Origin: a virus
IMG/VR virus record: IMGVR_UViG_3300032334_001950
Coordinates: 1-64,000 of that record
Direction: 5' to 3' (one strand)
DNA: 64,000 nt
Below are positions 2,340 through 53,108 of the stretch, piece after piece. Made by a program: the position numbers and the translations under genes. The first letter of the stretch is position 1, and each line of letters starts with the position of its first letter. Below the pieces are notes generated by a model. The model worked only from the letters and a program-made list of their open reading frames with translations, ran no database searches and was not told the origin of the DNA.

Positions 2340-4925
2340 CTATTCCTCTTCTTTACCCTCAGGAAGAATTGTTCCGTGTGATTTAAACTTTTGATCAGAA
2401 GCCCGTACCGCCAAGCCCTTCACGTAAGCTCGACCTTTCTTCGAAAACGTAAAAACATCATTAAGGCCCAATTGGTTCTTGCAGCAGTCCATCAACAACG
2501 CAACAAAACGCCGCTGCCCCACCGACTTACTCCCTGTATCTTCGCAATACGCAGCATAACTCGGATACAAATGATGGTTGCTATTGCAATACCGCTCCTG
2601 GGCATCCTTTGCAGCGGGAATCTTCTTACCAATGGCTGCAACATTCTCTGGCGCCACAACAATTTCAGACTGCAACCAATCCACCAAATTATTGCTATTC
2701 AACAGGATCTCATTCTTCACCTTACGCAGCGACGGGACCAACTCATTGGTGTCCAGCAAATAACGACGCATATCACGTTCACCCATCTCCAGCACCCAAT
2801 TGACCAAGCCGGGCAAATAATCTTTCCATACCCCACCAATACTGCCCTTATTAATCTTGATCATATCCTTGGCTTCACTACTCTTGTTGTAAAGCGGCCT
2901 ATTGAACTCAATTGTGAGGCGACGGCGGCTTAATCCACTGGTGGGATCACTGGTCTGAATTGGTTCGTTAGCAGCCACCATAACCATACCCTCATAAACA
3001 AAGGGCTCCCCAATAGCCTTCAACTTCTCTTCATAGCGCAAGTTATCACCGCCCGTCAACGCCTTAAAGATCTGAGCAGAACCGCCATAACGCTCCGAGT
3101 CATTGATCAACGTCAGACGCTTATCCTTCAATGCCGAAACCTCAAACCGGCTCTGCTCCAGCTGGTTCAACGTACTACTGGCAAAGTTACCAGCACCCAC
3201 CATGGCGCAACATAAGTTGGTGAAGGTACTCTTACCGCGACCACCAGGACCAATAACTTCAAGAAAACGTTGAATTTCGTTGCCGCGACCCACTAGGCAA
3301 GCTCGTAACCAAGCTCGCAACACCTGTACACGATCTTCATCACCGTATTGTGTACGCAATAACCAATCACGGATGGGGCCGGGTTCAGCAGAAGGTTCAT
3401 ACGGAAAATCAAGACCCCAAGTCAAAAAATTCTGTTGTTTATGGTCACTGAATTCACCGCTGCTTAGGTCAAGTACGCCATTGGAGAAGGCAAGCATGGA
3501 GCTGTCATCATTCCATTCGGAACAAGACAGAAAACCACGCAACAAGAGGGCAACATCATTAACAAGGTTGTTGCTGTAGCCGCCGGGTAACTCCGCCATC
3601 TTAAGGTGAAATTGCACATTATGCAAAAAGTCCTCCCTATGTGCTTGTTTACGCCAAATCCCCTTGGCGCCGTCATACTGCAACCAATTCTCATACTGCG
3701 GGTCATATCGCCATCCATCACGTAACATCAGCGGAAACAGATTATCCGCTAGCTGCGACGAGGGTGGATTCCGTCCTTTCTTAGGAGCGTTACGGTTGAC
3801 GCCACCAGCAGCAAAATGCTCAGGATTCTCGCCATATTCCTCTTCATCCTCATCCTCCTCTGCTTCCTCCTCATCAATCTCCAACTGTGCATTCACCCGC
3901 TGCACAATTGCTTCCATCGATGGCGCAGCATAACCACCAAGATCCACATACCCATCTTCCTTCGCAATAGCCTTCAATGTCTTCAGGCCGCAGCCACCCT
4001 CAGGGTTTGGCCCACCAGGCAATCGCTCAAACGTAGCCCACTTCGCCTCGCAGCACCCATCTTCAAACGCATCAGACTGAGCCGACCACGCCACCCAGGC
4101 ATGCAACAGGCTGTCATCGATCTGGTGCAGAGCCATGCCGATGCGCACCCATTCGTGGTAATCATCAGCACGTTCAACATTCATTGCACCTAGATACTTG
4201 CAAGCATCCTCAATTACTGATTCCAAATGATACTTAGAATCAGTGTCATAATTCAACGTAATATTCTGGTTGATGAAGTTCGTAGCACCAACACCACGCT
4301 TCCGATACTTTGTACTTGGATATGCTTTTGCAATTTCTGCATAAACCCAGTCCGGTAATTCCGGTGGTGATGCAGCAAATTCAAACCCGCCATGCTCTGT
4401 CGTTCGGTAGCCATCCGTCTCAGGGTGTGCGCCGCAAATAGCACCCTGCCTACTTGACCACAACATCTCAAATGGTGCAGCCCCCAGCTTCAACGTGGCC
4501 CGTTCAGGTAGCCGTCCAATGCTGTCATTACTGACGCGGAACAGCATCCGCATGCGACCTTCTTTCCCACTAGCGATCGTTAACGTCGGAGGAAAAATTG
4601 AAGCGATCGGCCCGCCACCAAGCCGTTCAACAAATTCAATCCCTTCCGGCCCATCAAAATCAACCCAGATCAACCCATACTCATTACTAAATTGCCCCGA
4701 TAGCAACCCGATACCTGTAGCCCGCCCCTCCTCAATCTCCTTCTGGATCTGAGTTACAGTCAGTGGATTAGTGGTCCATCCGGGAAGGTATGCTTTCTTC
4801 CCCCGCAATGGGGTCAACGCCCAATCAACGGGTATCCAATCCAGCTTGATTTCACCAGGTTGGAGGTGTTTACGGGGGCGGCGGGGCTCCAGGGTCGCGG
4901 TGGCGCTCACAGGGGGATATGGCAA
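2340..4925 (-). CDS. bifunctional primase-polymerase / PriCT-2 / D5-like SF3 helicase
   Basis: N-terminal Prim-Pol (WVDFDG, GAHPET), PriCT-2 (DYHEWVRIGMAL), Walker A GPGGRGKST, FKALTGGD. Confidence 0.92.
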   Translation of the reverse strand: MPYPPVSATATLEPRRPRKHLQPGEIKLDWIPVDWALTPLRGKKAYLPGWTTNPLTVTQIQKEIEEGRATGIGLLSGQFSNEYGLIWVDFDGPEGIEFVERLGGGPIASIFPPTLTIASGKEGRMRMLFRVSNDSIGRLPERATLKLGAAPFEMLWSSRQGAICGAHPETDGYRTTEHGGFEFAASPPELPDWVYAEIAKAYPSTKYRKRGVGATNFINQNITLNYDTDSKYHLESVIEDACKYLGAMNVERADDYHEWVRIGMALHQIDDSLLHAWVAWSAQSDAFEDGCCEAKWATFERLPGGPNPEGGCGLKTLKAIAKEDGYVDLGGYAAPSMEAIVQRVNAQLEIDEEEAEEDEDEEEYGENPEHFAAGGVNRNAPKKGRNPPSSQLADNLFPLMLRDGWRYDPQYENWLQYDGAKGIWRKQAHREDFLHNVQFHLKMAELPGGYSNNLVNDVALLLRGFLSCSEWNDDSSMLAFSNGVLDLSSGEFSDHKQQNFLTWGLDFPYEPSAEPGPIRDWLLRTQYGDEDRVQVLRAWLRACLVGRGNEIQRFLEVIGPGGRGKSTFTNLCCAMVGAGNFASSTLNQLEQSRFEVSALKDKRLTLINDSERYGGSAQIFKALTGGDNLRYEEKLKAIGEPFVYEGMVMVAANEPIQTSDPTSGLSRRRLTIEFNRPLYNKSSEAKDMIKINKGSIGGVWKDYLPGLVNWVLEMGERDMRRYLLDTNELVPSLRKVKNEILLNSNNLVDWLQSEIVVAPENVAAIGKKIPAAKDAQERYCNSNHHLYPSYAAYCEDTGSKSVGQRRFVALLMDCCKNQLGLNDVFTFSKKGRAYVKGLAVRASDQKFKSHGTILPEGKEEE

Positions 4926-45947: not shown

Positions 45948-48236
45948 ATGAGCGAATCAAACACAGTCCTAGATGGAATGCTACGTGCAGCCGTAAACCG
46001 TGAGTCAAACGGTGCGGCAGACACGATGCTGATAAATTCGCATCTAGGTCAGATGAAGATGTTCGGCATCCGACAAGGTGTTGAATTTTACCCCCAGCAA
46101 GATAACTTTGGTTCGCAACGGTTTGATTTTATCCAGCAAGTCATTAAATTTAATAAGTTAGATGCGCGGTTGGATTCCATTTGGGATCGCTTTTTGGCTT
46201 ACGGCAAAGGACTTTTTTATATTCGCCCAACCAAGAAGACCTATCGTTTGTATTGGTTTGATAAAGACGCCTACCGCACCTATTACACCCCGGAAGGGGA
46301 ACTTGAAGAAGTTATTATCATTTACCCGTATAAAGTCAAATCTTCGCGTGGTTTTGGTGGCGTCGGCCTTTCCACGGACAAGCGTTACATGCGTCTACGG
46401 ATTACGGCAACAGAAATTGAGGAATCTCATAGCGAACAAGAATTAAAGTTTGATACGCCTGAGAGCTTTGCGGCGTTAAACAAAACAACCGTAATCAATA
46501 CACTTGAATTTATCCCATGCGTAGAGGTATTCAATAATCCCGACGCATTTGGTACCGAGGGTAGCGGCGAATTTGAATGGCTTGCCAATCAAGTCGTTGC
46601 TCATGATGAAATGGTTAAAAATATCCGCGCAAACCTTTCTTTCTTCGGTAATCCTACACTTCTGTCTTCACGCCCCAAGCAAGACATTATTGAAAAAGCT
46701 GAAGGAGACACAGCGCAACGCCCCAGCATTTCTAGCCAATCAGGTTTCCAATCTGAATTCAGTCTTTCAAGTTCTACTTACAAACAAGATCCGACATCAC
46801 GAAATGCCCCAGGATATATTGGGCGGCCAGGTTCCGGCATGCGTGTCCCCAGGGTTATTGCCAACCTGGAGCCAACAGATCGTGTGGGTTTCATCACGCC
46901 AAATGCGGTTAGTTCGGAACAATCGCGTTATGTTGACCAACTGCGCTCTGAAATCCGCCTAGCGTTAGGTGGAATTGATGATCTAAGCATCCAGAACGTT
47001 ACTGCAACCGAAATCAAATCGGCCTATGGTCGCGTCAGTGCAACAGCAAAGAAAAAATGTTTACAACTATACACTTATGGAATTTGTCGTTGTTTTGAGC
47101 TGATAATCTTTCAAGAAGAACAAATTTTTCGGAAGACCTTGGCGCAATCATTGGGGTTGGTTTATCCGATTCCACCGGAAGATCCCAACGATCCTAAGCT
47201 GGCACTTAAATTCAAACGAGCTAAGACAAAATACGAAACAACTCTACGGGCGGGCATTGATAATGTAATTAATACTAAACAAATTCCGGACGGCGTTTTA
47301 GGTTTGATTCCCGATGGCGATCGAACCATTTGTTGGCGCTGGATGGGGCCGGTTTATGAAGACACTCCGCAAGATAAATTAAATCAGTCAATTTTCACGA
47401 GAAACCTACAAGAATTAGGTGTTGATAGCATTGAAGCACTGAAGTACCTTTTCCCGTCCAAAACTGATGACGAGATTGCAGGAATGCTTTCTGGTTTTCC
47501 GTTTAGAATGGTCGGGGAAGTACAAAGGGCTTATTCATCGTTTATTGACCTGGTCAATTTACAGATGAGGACGCCGCATCCGCAGCAACCCAACCTTCCC
47601 ATGGCTGCGGACCCAAGACTAAATCTCACCCCCTTCCTTTACCGAACTTTAGAGAGTTTACAAAAAGAGGTAACCTATGCAGGCCGATACCGCAGCGCCG
47701 ATCCAATCGGCACCCCAGTCTTACCAGACCCAGCCGACCAGTTACGCGGCGCCGGTAGCCCAGCAAACGGCAGCTCAGGCTCCGATGGTGGCAACAACGC
47801 CTCAGTGGGTGGCACCTTACCAGCCGGTGTCGGCCCCAGCCCCGCAAATGCCGGCCCAGATGGGAGTAACGCCCCAATACCAGCCTACTCAATCGTACCC
47901 CCAGGCGTACCAGCAAGCTCCGGTGGCCCAGCCGGTGTCGGCCCCGGTAGCAGAGAATCCCTACAAGGAAGCGTTCAACCGGGTGGTCGGACTCCTGAGT
48001 TCGCCGGTCCAATTCCCCTTCCAGGGTCAACAGTCCGCGCCGAGTCAACCAACCGTCCCGGCCAATTACAGTTCACAGCCGGCAACCCAGTACAGCAACA
48101 ATCCGTACCAGGCTCCGCTGACCTCTATGCCTGGAGCCAGCAGCAACCAGGTATCCTTCAGCAACTCTTCCCCAACCTCGTTGGAAATCAGCCGGGAACA
48201 GTTGTTGGCAAACGGGGTAAGCCCCAAAAGCCTTGA
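45948..48236 (+). CDS. portal protein with long low-complexity C-terminal tail
   Basis: Position after terL, size, GKGLFYIR and FIPCVEVFN-like portal segments. Confidence 0.75.
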   Translation: MSESNTVLDGMLRAAVNRESNGAADTMLINSHLGQMKMFGIRQGVEFYPQQDNFGSQRFDFIQQVIKFNKLDARLDSIWDRFLAYGKGLFYIRPTKKTYRLYWFDKDAYRTYYTPEGELEEVIIIYPYKVKSSRGFGGVGLSTDKRYMRLRITATEIEESHSEQELKFDTPESFAALNKTTVINTLEFIPCVEVFNNPDAFGTEGSGEFEWLANQVVAHDEMVKNIRANLSFFGNPTLLSSRPKQDIIEKAEGDTAQRPSISSQSGFQSEFSLSSSTYKQDPTSRNAPGYIGRPGSGMRVPRVIANLEPTDRVGFITPNAVSSEQSRYVDQLRSEIRLALGGIDDLSIQNVTATEIKSAYGRVSATAKKKCLQLYTYGICRCFELIIFQEEQIFRKTLAQSLGLVYPIPPEDPNDPKLALKFKRAKTKYETTLRAGIDNVINTKQIPDGVLGLIPDGDRTICWRWMGPVYEDTPQDKLNQSIFTRNLQELGVDSIEALKYLFPSKTDDEIAGMLSGFPFRMVGEVQRAYSSFIDLVNLQMRTPHPQQPNLPMAADPRLNLTPFLYRTLESLQKEVTYAGRYRSADPIGTPVLPDPADQLRGAGSPANGSSGSDGGNNASVGGTLPAGVGPSPANAGPDGSNAPIPAYSIVPPGVPASSGGPAGVGPGSRESLQGSVQPGGRTPEFAGPIPLPGSTVRAESTNRPGQLQFTAGNPVQQQSVPGSADLYAWSQQQPGILQQLFPNLVGNQPGTVVGKRGKPQKP

Positions 48237-48720
48237 GGTAATTGACCATTTTGGTCCCGATGCTGCTCGCGTACTGAATGAGTATTCTTGCAGCCTTGAA
48301 GATCACCTGGTCATCACCAATAACCAGCTGGTGCAGGCTGTAGGTTTGCTGCAAGAATTGTCCAATGAGCATAAGGCATACGAGATCATCCTGACCGATC
48401 CTGATGTCCTTGCTGATTACACTACTCAATTCTTCGGCGAAAACGGCCCCTACCCGATCCCCGATGAGGAGACCGGTTATCGGCCTGCCCCTGTTGTAAA
48501 TACTGGCTATCGTCCTATTCCCACCGCAGCTGCCCCCCAGCAGTTTGAGCGTCCTCAGATGCCCGTTCCCCCTCAGCCCCAGGCTCAGGGCAATCCTGCG
48601 GCCTTCTGGGATAGTTTTGGCACCCTTGCTGATCGGGACCCCGCCAATGCTTGGCGATATTTGAATGCAGCGCAATCCAACCCCGATGTGTTCCGCCAAA
48701 AACTGCTCGTGATGGAGTGA
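47677..48720 (+). CDS. capsid scaffolding protein (putative)
   Basis: GAGGT ribosome-binding site upstream; Pro/Gln-rich N-terminus, coiled-coil core; between portal and MCP. Confidence 0.7.
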   Translation: MQADTAAPIQSAPQSYQTQPTSYAAPVAQQTAAQAPMVATTPQWVAPYQPVSAPAPQMPAQMGVTPQYQPTQSYPQAYQQAPVAQPVSAPVAENPYKEAFNRVVGLLSSPVQFPFQGQQSAPSQPTVPANYSSQPATQYSNNPYQAPLTSMPGASSNQVSFSNSSPTSLEISREQLLANGVSPKSLEVIDHFGPDAARVLNEYSCSLEDHLVITNNQLVQAVGLLQELSNEHKAYEIILTDPDVLADYTTQFFGENGPYPIPDEETGYRPAPVVNTGYRPIPTAAAPQQFERPQMPVPPQPQAQGNPAAFWDSFGTLADRDPANAWRYLNAAQSNPDVFRQKLLVME

Positions 48721-49508: not shown

Positions 49509-49804
49509 ATACCGACAAAGCAAAAGCTGCCAGGGATAAAGCAAAAATTGCATCTGGCAAAAAAGCCCCGCAGAAGAAGGCAACCACCCCAACTGCAGCG
49601 GCAGCAGAAAAGCATCCGGAAGTGGCTGCAGCACTTGCACGCAATGCACTTTTATCTGGTGGTATTGCGCCAGAAAGTGCTGGCATTGGCCTTGGTCATT
49701 CTGCCGACCTTCAACCCGCAGATGGTGTAGTCAACCCATTCCATAGGATGGGGCCGATCAATCCGAACACCTATAATCCCGGCAACGTGATCGGCGGTTT
49801 CTGA
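49505..49804 (+). CDS. hypothetical protein
   Basis: ATGA-coupled 99-aa ORF. Confidence 0.6.
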   Translation: MNTDKAKAARDKAKIASGKKAPQKKATTPTAAAAEKHPEVAAALARNALLSGGIAPESAGIGLGHSADLQPADGVVNPFHRMGPINPNTYNPGNVIGGF

Positions 49805-49968
49805 TTTTCTTATTAACAGGCGTAAGTAAGCCCCTGCTATAATTTTTGCAATGGGACGAAAGTTCCAGGCCAGTAATGGCGCGAACCTAGACAACTAGAT
49901 TTAAGTCCATTACGTCCTGGATCTTTTGGGTCCAGGTGTCAGCTAAACCCTTACGCTGAATTACCAAC

Positions 49969-52236
49969 ATGTTTATTGATAATGACTTTCCTAAGCTGTT
50001 AGGTGCGGAGCTTTATCGCCCCCACCCGGCTTACATCGTCGAAATGGCCGCAGAACCGGTTGAATAACAGCCGCCTTTTTGAGTAATCAAAAAGTGATAA
50101 CCCGGTGAATTGCTGGAAACCCTTCTAAAAGAATTGAACCCTACAACGTAATCAGTAATGATAAGCGTGATAGGTTGAAAAGTTTCAATTGTCGGGCAAT
50201 CAGCAGCCAAGCTTCCTAGGAATAGGTGGAAGGTTCAACGACTAGGGTACACGATCCAGAACGGATTATGAAACCCATTAGCGCCGGGGCTCCCAAAATT
50301 GAATGTAATTTTTAAATTTACGTTCAATGGCAAAATCAGAATTCTGGTAAATAGCTTGTATTGCCTTGGCATCTTTTTTGTATCCGGGCAAATGAAACAA
50401 GTTGCTACCATTTTTGGTAAATTCTGATTTGATCGGCAACTCTACGCTTGATATTAATTTGATCCATGTTTGGAGTTGTACAGCAAATTTGATTGACGCG
50501 GTGGTGATTTTAAAGCGGCGATCTGTTACAGAACCGTCGCCATCCCAAGCCCCACGCAAAAAATGAGGCACTAAGTTTTCTTGCAGTGTTGTCGTGATCT
50601 CTAAAGTTTTAGATTTATTGGGTAAAATACCCAATTTCATCAAATCTTTAACCAAGGCAACTCTACTTAAAACCAATGACTTTTGTGGTAATGATTTTTT
50701 ACCACGTATTGTTGAAATCTTGGTTTGCAATTTTGGGGCATTTGAGCCCAGCTCGTTGCGAAATCTTTCAAGAATTAAACAATCCTCTTCTTTTAATGCG
50801 ATGCGAGCAGCCGTCAATCTAGGATTAATATTTCCATCGGTTGCCAATAGACCAAGAAAATAAGCCTTTCCTTCTGTATCAATTTTTTCAAAATAACGCT
50901 CGTTGTAATTGAAAAAAGAGTAAGTTTCGCCGGCTTTATTTTTTCTAAGCCCCGTCTGCTCAAAAAAAGATAGAAGGTTGAATTTTTTTCTGGCATTGTA
51001 AAAAGCAACCATTGATATATTTAGTTCTTTTGCTGCATCAGCATCAGACATCGTAGCAGAAAGTTCTGCTACCACTTCAAATGAAAGATTTAAGCGATTG
51101 TGCCGAGCCATGGGGAGCGTGATATAGTCTGTGCCCCACCGATGACAAAGGTGGGGAACAATGGATTGGGAAGCTCAATCCTAGCACGTGTTGTTCATGA
51201 CTTCACCAAACAGCCTGGCCAAACCGTTCAGCTGGACCGGTACCGTTTCTGGGGTAACCCCGGTACCAAGGCCAACCGTGAGCGTACCCAGGACCAGACC
51301 ATTGGTACCGCTAACAGCCGTTCCATTGTGAAGGACAAAGTTCTGGTGTCTCTCCGCGAGTACACTGGTCCTGCCGACCCGAACAATGCCAACGCTCCCA
51401 GCACCTTTAAGATTGCTCGGGAAACGCTGATGACCGCTCAGCGCTTGCTGCTGGACACCGGGAACCTTAACATGTTCCACCAGTCCATTGGTTCGCTGAC
51501 CCTGCTGGATGACTACCGCCGCTGGCGTGATCGCGTGCTGCTGGACGAACTGTATAAGTCCTTCTCACGCGGCCAAGCCTCCGATACCCAAGGTGGTTAC
51601 TACTACCCCAACAACCACACCAACTCCAGTGGTACCGTTAGCACCTACACTGCTACCGAATATGCTTCTGAGCGTTACAAGTTTAACGTGAAGAGCGACC
51701 TTCTGGAAGTTGTCAAAGGTCTGCGTAAGCGTAACGTTCCCGTCTTCCAAGATGGTTACTACCGCTGTATTGCTGATCCCTCCTTCATGAAGGATCTGCG
51801 TGCGGACCAAGGCTTCCGTGAAGTTGCGCGTTACCCTGGCATGGGCCAAGGCAACCCCATGATGGGCGCCATGGGTCCCAACCAAGCCATCTACGGTGGT
51901 GGTCAATACGGCCAAGCTGCTTTTGTGGCTGGTGAACCGATCATGCCTACCGGCTTTGTGTTTGAAGGTGTTCGTTTCTTCGAATCGACCAACTTCACCA
52001 ACCTGACCGTCACCTGCGACATCAACGATGGCGCTGGTTCCACGACCCACACCACGCCTCCCGGCCTGTTCTTCGGTCCCCAGGCTGTTGGTATCGGTAT
52101 CGGCGGCCCCAATGCTCAAGTCCTCATTAACAACAACGACGACTTCAGCCGCTTTATCATCCTGATTTGGCAGCTGTACGCCGGTTTTGCTAACCTGAAC
52201 AAGGACTTCTGCACCGTCGCATTCACCATCGTTTGA
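49969..52236 (+). CDS. major capsid protein, join(49969..50060,51189..52236), 379 aa
   Basis: Exon 1 MFIDNDFPKLLGAELYRPHPAYIVEMAAEP joins in frame to VVVHDFTKQPGQTV; G.FEGVRFFES motif; strongly biased codon use. Confidence 0.88.
50061..51188 (+). mobile_element. group I intron
   Basis: 5' exon ends in U (P1 CGGU/GCCG), terminal G, P AATTGCTGGAAAC, Q AATCAGCAG, R GTTCAACGACTA, S GATATAGTCT, P3 CCCGGTG/CGCCGGG, P8 GCTCCC/GGGAGC, 9-bp P10. Confidence 0.93.
50278..51111 (-). CDS. LAGLIDADG homing endonuclease, antisense to intron
   Basis: Two motifs YFLGLLATDGNI and HFLRGAWDGDGSV; N-terminal HTH-like segment; AT-rich. Confidence 0.9.
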   Translation of the reverse strand: MARHNRLNLSFEVVAELSATMSDADAAKELNISMVAFYNARKKFNLLSFFEQTGLRKNKAGETYSFFNYNERYFEKIDTEGKAYFLGLLATDGNINPRLTAARIALKEEDCLILERFRNELGSNAPKLQTKISTIRGKKSLPQKSLVLSRVALVKDLMKLGILPNKSKTLEITTTLQENLVPHFLRGAWDGDGSVTDRRFKITTASIKFAVQLQTWIKLISSVELPIKSEFTKNGSNLFHLPGYKKDAKAIQAIYQNSDFAIERKFKNYIQFWEPRR

Positions 52237-52253
52237 TAGGAGGTAACTAACTC

Positions 52254-53108
52254 ATGGCTCTCTACAAAACTAATGCTGGCGCCGTACTTTACCCCGGCGA
52301 TCAGATTAACCGCCTGTCTGGCTACAACAACGAAGGTGTCTTTGGTTGGCCTGGTATTGAGGCGTATGAAATCGTTGGTTACGTGCCCATCTCAAGCAGC
52401 ACGGCAGCCAAGACTTTCACGACCATTACCGTCCCTTCACCCGATCGTCGTACTGATGACCGCGTGCGTGACAACCTGAGTGCGATCACTGTGCCTGCTT
52501 CCAGCAGCCAGCCTTCGTACATCTATGGTGCTTCTATTGCTATTGCTCAGGACATTCCTTCTGGCTCTGGTAATGGCGCCCTGCCTGGCTTCCCTGGCGT
52601 GCCTGTGACTGCTGATCTCGTTGGCACCACTAGCGACCTGCTGCTGTTTGGCCCTGATAACTCCGGCGTCCCCGCTGGTGTTTCTACCGCCAACAAAGCA
52701 CTTGGTATCGGTAACGCTGTTGCCTACCTGACTGTTGCTTCTAGCGCCCTGACCCAGGGTACTAATGCGCTGTCCAACGGTAACGCCACCGCCGGCTCGC
52801 TGCCTTTCGCCAGCTCCGTGACCTCTGGTGGTATTCTTGCTGCGGATTTCTACAGCTCGATGTTCTACAAGGTCACCGCTGATACCACCTTCGGTGTGTA
52901 CAGCGTGCTGACGGCTGCCGCCACGACCGCCAACGGTTCCGGCGTTAACATCAGCGCTGCCAACGTAACCGCCAACAAAACCGGTTACATTGTGTGCCGC
53001 ATCAACTATCTGCGTCCTGCCGATGCTGCTAGCTGGACTGACATCCAGGGCTTCATCGACTTCAAGTCGCAGATTGGTGGTGATGACGGTGCCGGCGTGA
53101 ACGGCTGA
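52254..53108 (+). CDS. abundant structural protein (capsid decoration or minor capsid)
   Basis: AGGAGG ribosome-binding site, follows MCP, same codon bias. Confidence 0.7.
   Translation: MALYKTNAGAVLYPGDQINRLSGYNNEGVFGWPGIEAYEIVGYVPISSSTAAKTFTTITVPSPDRRTDDRVRDNLSAITVPASSSQPSYIYGASIAIAQDIPSGSGNGALPGFPGVPVTADLVGTTSDLLLFGPDNSGVPAGVSTANKALGIGNAVAYLTVASSALTQGTNALSNGNATAGSLPFASSVTSGGILAADFYSSMFYKVTADTTFGVYSVLTAAATTANGSGVNISAANVTANKTGYIVCRINYLRPADAASWTDIQGFIDFKSQIGGDDGAGVNG

Follow-up and report, generated by a model that had tools for sequence, protein, structure and literature searches.

The 64,000-nucleotide (nt) stretch analysed here, hereafter the window, covers positions 1 to 64,000 of the 72,253-base IMG/VR virus record IMGVR_UViG_3300032334_001950, a 72-kb record whose nearest isolate is Synechococcus phage S-EIV1. 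At positions 49,969 to 52,236 the window carries a major capsid protein (MCP) gene that is split within codon 31 by a group I intron, as a first-pass annotation made from the sequence had proposed; the match to Rfam family RF00028, the covariation of the helices and the alignment with homologues described below confirm this observation. The peripheral helix P8 of the intron holds a large loop, and this loop is filled by an open reading frame (ORF) on the opposite strand that the first-pass annotation did not mention and that has the hallmarks of a LAGLIDADG homing endonuclease gene. The features of the locus are collected in Table 1.

Table 1. Features of the split capsid gene, its intron and the antisense gene; positions refer to the window.
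Feature	Position	Strand	Basis
Promoter-like motif of the extended -10 type, TGCTATAAT, preceding the MCP gene	49835..49843	+	One of two perfect TGNTATAAT matches in the window
MCP exon 1, from ATG: 30 codons plus GT (first two bases of codon 31)	49969..50060	+	Translation; peptide matches N-terminus of uninterrupted homologues
Group I intron, 1128 nt, phase 2 in codon 31, IA-like	50061..51188	+	RF00028; helices P1-P10 tested by covariation
P1: exon CGGU (50057-60) with guide GCCG (50070-73); loop 50061-69 is the P10 guide	50057..50073	+	4/4 pairs in 16/16 distinct copies
In-frame TAA two codons into the intron (GTT GAA TAA)	50065..50067	+	Read from sequence
P2 hairpin, 8 bp, GUAA loop	50075..50094	+	128/128 cells canonical; 7/8 pairs compensatory
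P3 (50101-07/50282-88) enclosing P4 (50111-16/50200-05), P5, P5a-c, P6 (50207-33), P7 5' strand (50240-43) and P7.1/P7.2 (50245-76)	50101..50288	+	Pair counts; RNAalifold
Homing endonuclease gene, 277 aa; LAGLIDADG motifs at about aa 84-95 and 185-194; N-terminal helical extension	50278..51111	-	Pfam, PHROG, AF2/Foldseek, dN/dS
Overlap zone: endonuclease stop and last five codons (W-E-P-R-R), complement of J7.2/3, P3 3' strand and P8 5' strand	50278..50294	-	Coordinates
P8: GCUCCC (50289-94) with GGGAGC (51113-18); 818-nt loop filled by the antisense ORF	50289..51118	+	95/96 cells canonical; 2 compensatory pairs
Mechanical ORF giving the MCP a wrong start, an intronic GTG	51100..52236	+	ORF list
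J8/7 (51119-25), P7 3' strand (51126-29), P9.0 (51131-33/51185-87), P9 (51134-56), P9.1 (51163-81), terminal G51188	51119..51188	+	P9 7/7 compensatory
MCP exon 2: third base of codon 31, 348 codons, stop	51189..52236	+	phrog_1357; S-EIV1 identity; HK97 fold of homologue model

The interrupted gene is, on the modelled fold of a close homologue, an HK97-fold MCP of 379 amino acids (aa) when spliced. Exon 2 matches PHROG 1357, 'major head protein' (E 1e-18, the match beginning at profile position 58), and no Pfam family. An AlphaFold model of the intron-less homologue at locus L002 (96.6 % identical), built from a 21-row alignment, reached a predicted local distance difference test score (pLDDT) of 77.4, and its top Foldseek matches were all HK97-fold phage capsids, the first being that of cyanophage P-SCSP1u (8i4l_A, E 1.7e-12). 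Codon 31 corresponds in this model to the first residue of the strand that follows the N-terminal helices. The sole named phage with a homologous MCP is S-EIV1, with 68.4 % identity over 100 % of exon 2. There the gene is one uninterrupted 383-aa ORF (L001 3000-4151), whose start peptide is 87 % identical to exon 1 and runs straight into ...EPVVVHDF..., the same peptide that exon ligation (...EPV/VVHDF) yields in the window with the frame restored, just as the first-pass annotation had read it. The S-EIV1 record itself (KJ410740.1 60784-62010, equivalent to L001 2925-4151) has no annotated 383-aa capsid ORF and lists instead a minus-strand coding sequence at 2925-3686 and a short plus-strand coding sequence at 3681-4151, both as 'hypothetical protein'.

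IMG/VR contains at least 597 further MCP relatives. The best 80 were compared by tblastn with the spliced protein, which was built by script from window slices. In 79 of them a single high-scoring segment pair runs over the junction. In the one remaining (L057) the first base of the contig already falls at residue 32, so that its junction cannot be judged; none of the 80 carries the codon-31 intron. The first-pass annotation had named homologues without the exon 1 peptide as one finding that would speak against it, and an alignment with intron-less homologues as a check: the peptide is present in S-EIV1 and in the IMG/VR relatives, fused directly to exon 2.

The intron boundaries are defined to the base. 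The final base of exon 1, U50060, lies in a U.G wobble with G50070 of P1, and G51188 is the last base of the intron. The bases after 50060 read UGAAUAACA and then GCCG, which are the P10 guide followed by the P1 guide. P10 is complementary at 9/9 positions, including one G.U (50061-50069 against 51189-51197), and U51189, the first base of exon 2, completes codon 31. P9.0 pairs GUG(C) at 51131-34 with (G)CAC at 51184-87, three pairs being conserved and C51134 having an alternative partner, G51156, within P9. Thus P1, P10, P9.0 and the terminal G are all present as originally drawn, and the suspicion that the ORF track mis-starts the MCP is borne out by the mechanical ORF of Table 1. Because the TAA sits two codons inside the intron, unspliced RNA would give a 32-aa peptide only.

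RF00028 is the single Rfam match at the gathering threshold in the window (50052-50354 on the plus strand, 53.6 bits, E 8.1e-11) and also the sole one across the whole record. Further copies of the intron were sought in viral contigs by an exact 22-nt core motif. The motif was found in 22 other contigs, and in 22/22 the intron stands directly after codon 31 of an S-EIV1-type MCP. Nineteen copies are complete, of which 15 measure 1107-1128 nt and contain the ORF (broken into four frames in one of them, L253) and four measure 288-318 nt and lack it. These four ORF-less copies (L244, L258, L263 and L264) have a compact 17-29-nt hairpin at P8 and lie in otherwise intact MCP genes. All 19 are bounded by CCGGT/TGA... 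and ...G/TGT, letters that the search patterns contained, so that the shared boundaries are no independent test.

The predicted secondary structure was assessed on these copies. In a full-length alignment of the four copies found first (the window, L083, L165 and L166), with P1-P10 written out from the window sequence, 93.6 % of 392 cells were paired, compared with 36-47 % when the 3' partners were slid by 1-3 columns, and 18 pairs had changed on both sides, compared with 1-6 in the slid controls. The observed values were reached by 0/500 shuffles for three of four informative measures; the fourth, the count of further pair types, was not above the shuffles (403/500). Over 20 copies, 16 of them distinct, 1380/1504 cells were canonical, with compensatory pairs in P2 (7/8), P5c (4/7), P6 (4/8), P7.1 (3/4), P7.2 (2/5), P8 (2/6) and P9 (7/7). 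The U.G wobble at the splice site was present in 16/16 distinct copies, and P7.1 and P7.2 (50245-50276) were canonical in 64/64 and 80/80 cells. P1, P3, P4, P5 and P7 were invariant over the 20 copies, an invariance that neither supports nor contradicts P3, P4, P5 and P7. RNAalifold, given the 5' half alone and unaided, predicted P1, P2, P3, P4, P5, P5c, P6 and P7.1/7.2. The extra helices P7.1 and P7.2 between P7 and the 3' strand of P3 point to subgroup IA, an assignment that is based on helix content.

The antisense ORF makes up about three quarters of the intron and differs from its surroundings in guanine-plus-cytosine content (35-40 % within the ORF vs 52-58 % in the exons). Its product matched Pfam PF14528 (LAGLIDADG_3) with 29.4 bits at a cut-off of 22.5 and phrog_4645, 'endonuclease', at 1.9e-40, while a PDB sequence search gave 0 matches. 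The AlphaFold (AF2) model reached a pLDDT of 92, and Foldseek returned probabilities of 1.00 to I-Tsp061I, I-SceI, I-DmoI and PI-SceI, together with intein endonuclease domains. The model thus describes the protein as a monomeric two-motif LAGLIDADG endonuclease of predicted pseudo-dimeric alpha-beta-beta-alpha-beta-beta-alpha fold. D92-G93 and D190-G191-D192-G193 are invariant in 20/20 aligned endonuclease sequences. A metagenome scan with this alignment recovered distant relatives only (27-41 % identity), which were left unused. The ORF is under purifying selection, with a ratio of non-synonymous to synonymous substitution rates (dN/dS) of 0.08 against the 95 %-identical copy in L083.

The antisense gene and the ribozyme overlap in part. 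At one end, the endonuclease ATG lies one base away from the 3' strand of P8. At the other, the gene overlaps the P3 3' strand and P8, so that the same 17 bases are subject to two selection regimes. The encoded C-terminus, W-[ED]-[PS]-R-R, is kept in 16/16 close endonuclease homologues, and in L258 an E-to-D change within it is accompanied by a changed paired base of P8. The codon-31 ORF is antisense to the capsid gene in all 17 contigs in which it could be detected.

The MCPs that harbor the intron share 61-89 % identity with the window MCP, and the identity of the endonucleases does not rise and fall with it: for L247 the MCP value is 82-87 % and that of the homing endonuclease gene (HEG) 55 %, for L260 they are 69 % and 64 %. 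The closest MCP of all, that of L002, is intron-less. Over exon 1 and some 130 nt before it, the window shares 95-100 % identity with L083, which bears the intron, and exon 2 is closer to intron-less L002 (90-100 % from +200 to +700), a flank mosaic that is suggestive of a co-conversion tract, though only suggestive. The protein sequence EPVVVHDFT across the insertion site is invariant among 78 intron-less alleles. Separately, the L264 intron is an L247-type intron minus the endonuclease ORF, the difference falling cleanly between two copies of the short repeat CCCA(A)TGGGA, and the comparison suggests that recombination at the foot of P8 removed or inserted the ORF precisely.

Taken together, the element is very probably a group I intron of the IA type that is mobile and carries a LAGLIDADG endonuclease gene in antisense. 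In the pathway that we propose, MCP pre-mRNA would probably be transcribed from the TGCTATAAT promoter at 49835, and the ribozyme would fold around P3-P8 and P4-P6. Guanosine would attack after U50060, held in the P1 U.G wobble; P10 would align exon 2 (50061-69 with 51189-97); and the terminal G51188 would be displaced as the exons are joined to encode the 379-aa capsid protein with its predicted HK97 fold. The 277-aa double-LAGLIDADG enzyme, encoded in the P8 loop on the opposite strand, would cut intron-less MCP alleles of co-infecting relatives, presumably at the exon 1/exon 2 junction, a position deduced from the insertion site, and repair of the cut allele would copy the intron in.

Several points weigh against this mobile-intron interpretation. 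The RF00028 score exceeds the curated gathering cut-off of 50 bits by only 3.6 bits; it understates the fit because the covariance model cannot span the 818-nt P8 loop, and over the entire model the naturally ORF-less copies of this intron reach 74.1-83 bits. P5a and P9.1 are paired in just 65 % and 51 % of cells across the 20 copies, which, judged by eye on the unrepaired alignment, suggests one-base register shifts between sub-lineages. The junction DNA of the window was found in none of the 78 intron-less alleles, in which 3-10 of the central 24 nt differ, all synonymously, so that no currently cleavable target has been identified. The antisense gene itself shows no Shine-Dalgarno sequence before its ATG and no TGNTATAAT-type motif upstream on the minus strand, where the 11 copies inspected contain just the complement of J8/7-P7-P9. 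A search for sigma-70-like promoters on both strands of 49700-52400 found 0, with 4.0 +/- 1.9 expected, and beyond 36.9 kb every long ORF of the window lies on the plus strand, save the endonuclease ORF and frame shadows. A leaderless endonuclease transcript is conceivable but unsupported. The anatomy of the intron, its covariation, the restored frame, the alleles with and without the intron, the selection on the ORF and the ORF-less derivatives are established here by sequence comparison, and we infer splicing in vivo, the activity of the endonuclease and its target, and the route by which the antisense gene is transcribed.

An alternative account is that the endonuclease is active while the element itself no longer spreads, being instead a vertically inherited passenger of a sub-lineage whose sporadic distribution reflects repeated loss. 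The many synonymous differences at the target in intron-less alleles fit this account, as does the frequency of the insertion in a sample of 80 loci (L265-L344) taken from among the matches listed to a degenerate exon 1 pattern, in which just 1/80 MCP alleles had an insertion at the codon-31 site. However, the incongruence between intron or HEG relatedness and MCP relatedness, the mosaic flanks and the lack of the intron in the nearest MCP allele all argue against purely vertical inheritance, and we regard the passenger account as unlikely. In another account, the intron would be genuine but not autonomous: it would require a protein cofactor, and the main role of the LAGLIDADG protein would be that of a maturase, not that of a homing nuclease. 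The Foldseek matches do include the bI3 maturase and the bifunctional I-AniI, and the ORF is under strong purifying selection though no matching intron-less target was found. Such a role is nevertheless quite improbable, as the four ORF-less copies in otherwise intact MCP genes indicate that the ribozyme manages without a cis-encoded protein, and the invariance of the acidic residues D92 and D192 in 20/20 homologues fits retained catalysis. Finally, that the capsid gene is dead or the contig mis-assembled, with the insertion never removed or the protein beginning at GTG 51100, is barely credible despite the existence of the mechanical ORF, given that 22 independent contigs have this insertion at an identical base, protein-level conservation extends over the exons, no homologue lacks exon 1, and 51100-51188 evolves as paired RNA (the 3' strands of P8 and P7, and P9) rather than as codons.

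Beyond the mobile intron in codon 31, the capsid gene of this lineage proved to be interrupted at seven or more further positions. L083, the intron-bearing relative closest to the window, has a second, ORF-less intron of 263 nt inside codon 89 (2302-2564 on the minus strand, 72.9 bits), at a position where the window (about 51361) has no insertion. L244 (3440-6700, plus strand) has five RF00028 matches in one capsid gene, scoring 90.4, 83, 80.6, 42.4 and 39 bits. They correspond to introns after codons ~4, 31, 53, 87 and 144, and the contig ends at residue 352, so more are possible. Four of the five L244 junctions have an exon-end T, an intron-end G and a restored frame, the first (about codon 4) being ambiguous; the ORF in the fourth intron is sense, and that in the fifth is antisense and of LAGLIDADG type. 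Further intron sites were found in L247, L258, L263, L264, L270, L290, L317, L320 and L341.

Among the 80 loci of the exon 1-pattern sample, blastn placed an intron after codon 4 (GAT/AAC) in 13 of those listed. Five have a larger insertion elsewhere, which follows codon 48 in three of them and lies at 31-38 and near 90 in the other two, and 14 listed loci were interrupted overall, about one allele in six. The codon-4 intron is about 230 nt long, with Rfam scores up to 92-102 bits (L290, L270 and L341), and is also present in six of the 80 best relatives (L005, L025, L026, L029, L030 and L077), where tblastn missed it because the first exon has only four codons. The MCP gene of the lineage thus has at least eight group I intron positions: after codon 4, in 31, after 48, 53 and 87, in 89, after 144 and near 284-293. 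Sense-strand ORFs occur in the introns at codon 48 and codons 88-91 and in the second L317 intron. At codon 31, near 144 in L244 and at 284 in L247 the ORFs are antisense, and these are members of one broad family, with 28-31 % identity.

On a narrow balance, we favor the idea that the S-EIV1-like MCP is the most intron-dense phage gene on record, and that it hosts an antisense-only endonuclease clade at three sites whose C-terminal codons complement the ribozyme core. If this is true, the antisense clade needs an expression route of its own against the flow of late transcription, and the endonuclease antisense RNA could modulate splicing of the capsid mRNA. As a separate observation, a library of 1.84 billion proteins clustered at 50 % contains many short MCP fragments (P0071-P0219), and the ends of several of them, at residue 31, 48, 54 or 88, coincide with intron sites or adjoin them, as is expected if gene callers split intron-bearing genes.

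Comparison with known systems indicates that what is notable here is a known kind of element inside a lineage capsid gene unusually rich in introns. The first-pass annotation had called it uncommon for an MCP to depend on splicing; this is a fair description, but precedents exist. The capsid gene of mycobacteriophage LittleE carries an 819-bp intron whose splicing was proven by reverse transcription-polymerase chain reaction (RT-PCR) and N-terminal sequencing (Pope et al. 2013, PMC3706429), and which its authors, in the accessible part of that report, typed as 'most likely group I'; the same text cites the capsid-gene intron of lactococcal phage Tuc2009 (PMC3706429). By the description given there, LittleE and the window are alike in the major capsid gene, the U at the end of exon 1, the G at the end of the intron, a bottom-strand LAGLIDADG-like frame and the existence of intron-less relatives, so that the combination seen in the window is not new in kind. 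They differ in the actinobacterial siphovirus host, the 819-bp size and the capsid family, and the overlap of the ORF end with the P3 3' strand and P8 is a feature of the window that the accessible text does not describe for LittleE (PMC3706429). A tblastn search of the window endonuclease against 50,697 phage records gave no Mycobacterium phage name among the matches listed or the names tallied.

The nearest named endonuclease homologues are instead those in recA introns of Twort-like Staphylococcus phages (812 and Quidividi), with 32-34 % identity over about 72 % of the length. As in the window, these are LAGLIDADG ('DOD') endonucleases encoded by an intron in an essential phage gene; in contrast, the Quidividi enzyme lies on the same strand as recA with an annotated ribosome-binding site of its own, whereas that of the window is antisense and in another host gene. 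The ribozyme cores of Staphylococcus and Bacillus phage introns are 70-76 % similar to 50096-50244. The T4 td and SPO1 DNA-polymerase introns, which belong to subgroup IA2, share with the window P7.1/P7.2 between P7 and the 3' strand of P3, a stop codon in frame soon after the 5' splice site and an ORF looped out from a peripheral helix, but they encode sense GIY-YIG or HNH enzymes and reside in nucleotide-metabolism or replication genes. In cyanophage S-PM2 the endonuclease is a free-standing neighbor gene and is not intron-encoded. The S-PM2 psbA intron resembles that of the window in that it, too, belongs to group I and interrupts a cyanophage gene with high expression, differing in that psbA is a photosynthetic rather than a structural gene, and the accessible text mentions the antisense non-coding RNA cfrI as a possible co-regulator of psbA mRNA (PMC5931967). 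An endonuclease gene opposite the ribozyme strand is also described, in the accessible part of a report on nuclear ribosomal DNA group I introns, for elements that differ from the window in being eukaryotic and nucleolar, in encoding His-Cys box enzymes and in having spliceosomal introns within the ORF (PMC9548176). In the Jug phages, as far as the accessible text goes, a genome has 18.5 introns on average, and terL is divided into two to three pieces (PMC12880540).

Our literature search, which covered sources outside subscription journals and supplementary files, found no report of introns in S-EIV1-like capsid genes and none of a single phage gene with group I introns in excess of three. 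A Twort gene reportedly has three introns, as the title of an entry in a reference list has it. Neither a review from 2014 on group I introns in bacteria (PMC3984707) nor a 2025 paper on an intron/endonuclease database (PMC11835236) uses the words antisense, opposite or capsid. The PA-SR01 cyanophage paper was considered as a precedent and rejected, its sole mention of 'group I intron' being an irrelevant BLAST label.

These features have consequences for both annotation and phage biology. Gene callers break or mis-start an intron-bearing capsid gene, and because capsid genes serve as markers of viral diversity, introns distort such surveys. Production of the hundreds of capsid subunits of each virion through ribozyme turnover implies very efficient splicing and offers a point of control. 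Because alleles with the full intron, with its ORF-less form and with no intron coexist in a single lineage that is abundant in the environment, this lineage provides a natural system for the homing cycle, and a view on how co-infecting phages compete by means of endonucleases.

Upstream of the capsid gene, the TATAAT block of TGCTATAAT is kept in 12/13 aligned upstream regions of relatives, from which a promoter role of the motif at 49835 appears likely. In relatives, the conserved TGCTATAAT is followed by a small conserved hairpin (AAUGGGAC...GUUCCA), corresponding to window 49835-49968, and an additional stretch of about 45 nt (about 49870-49916), present in the window and in L083, was judged by eye able to form a hairpin. 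Further upstream, within 45948-48720, lies an ORF for a 762-aa virion structural protein (phrog_20475, E 7.9e-207). A Q/P-rich ORF of 347 aa, provisionally placed at 47677-48720, shares 560 nt with it in a different frame.

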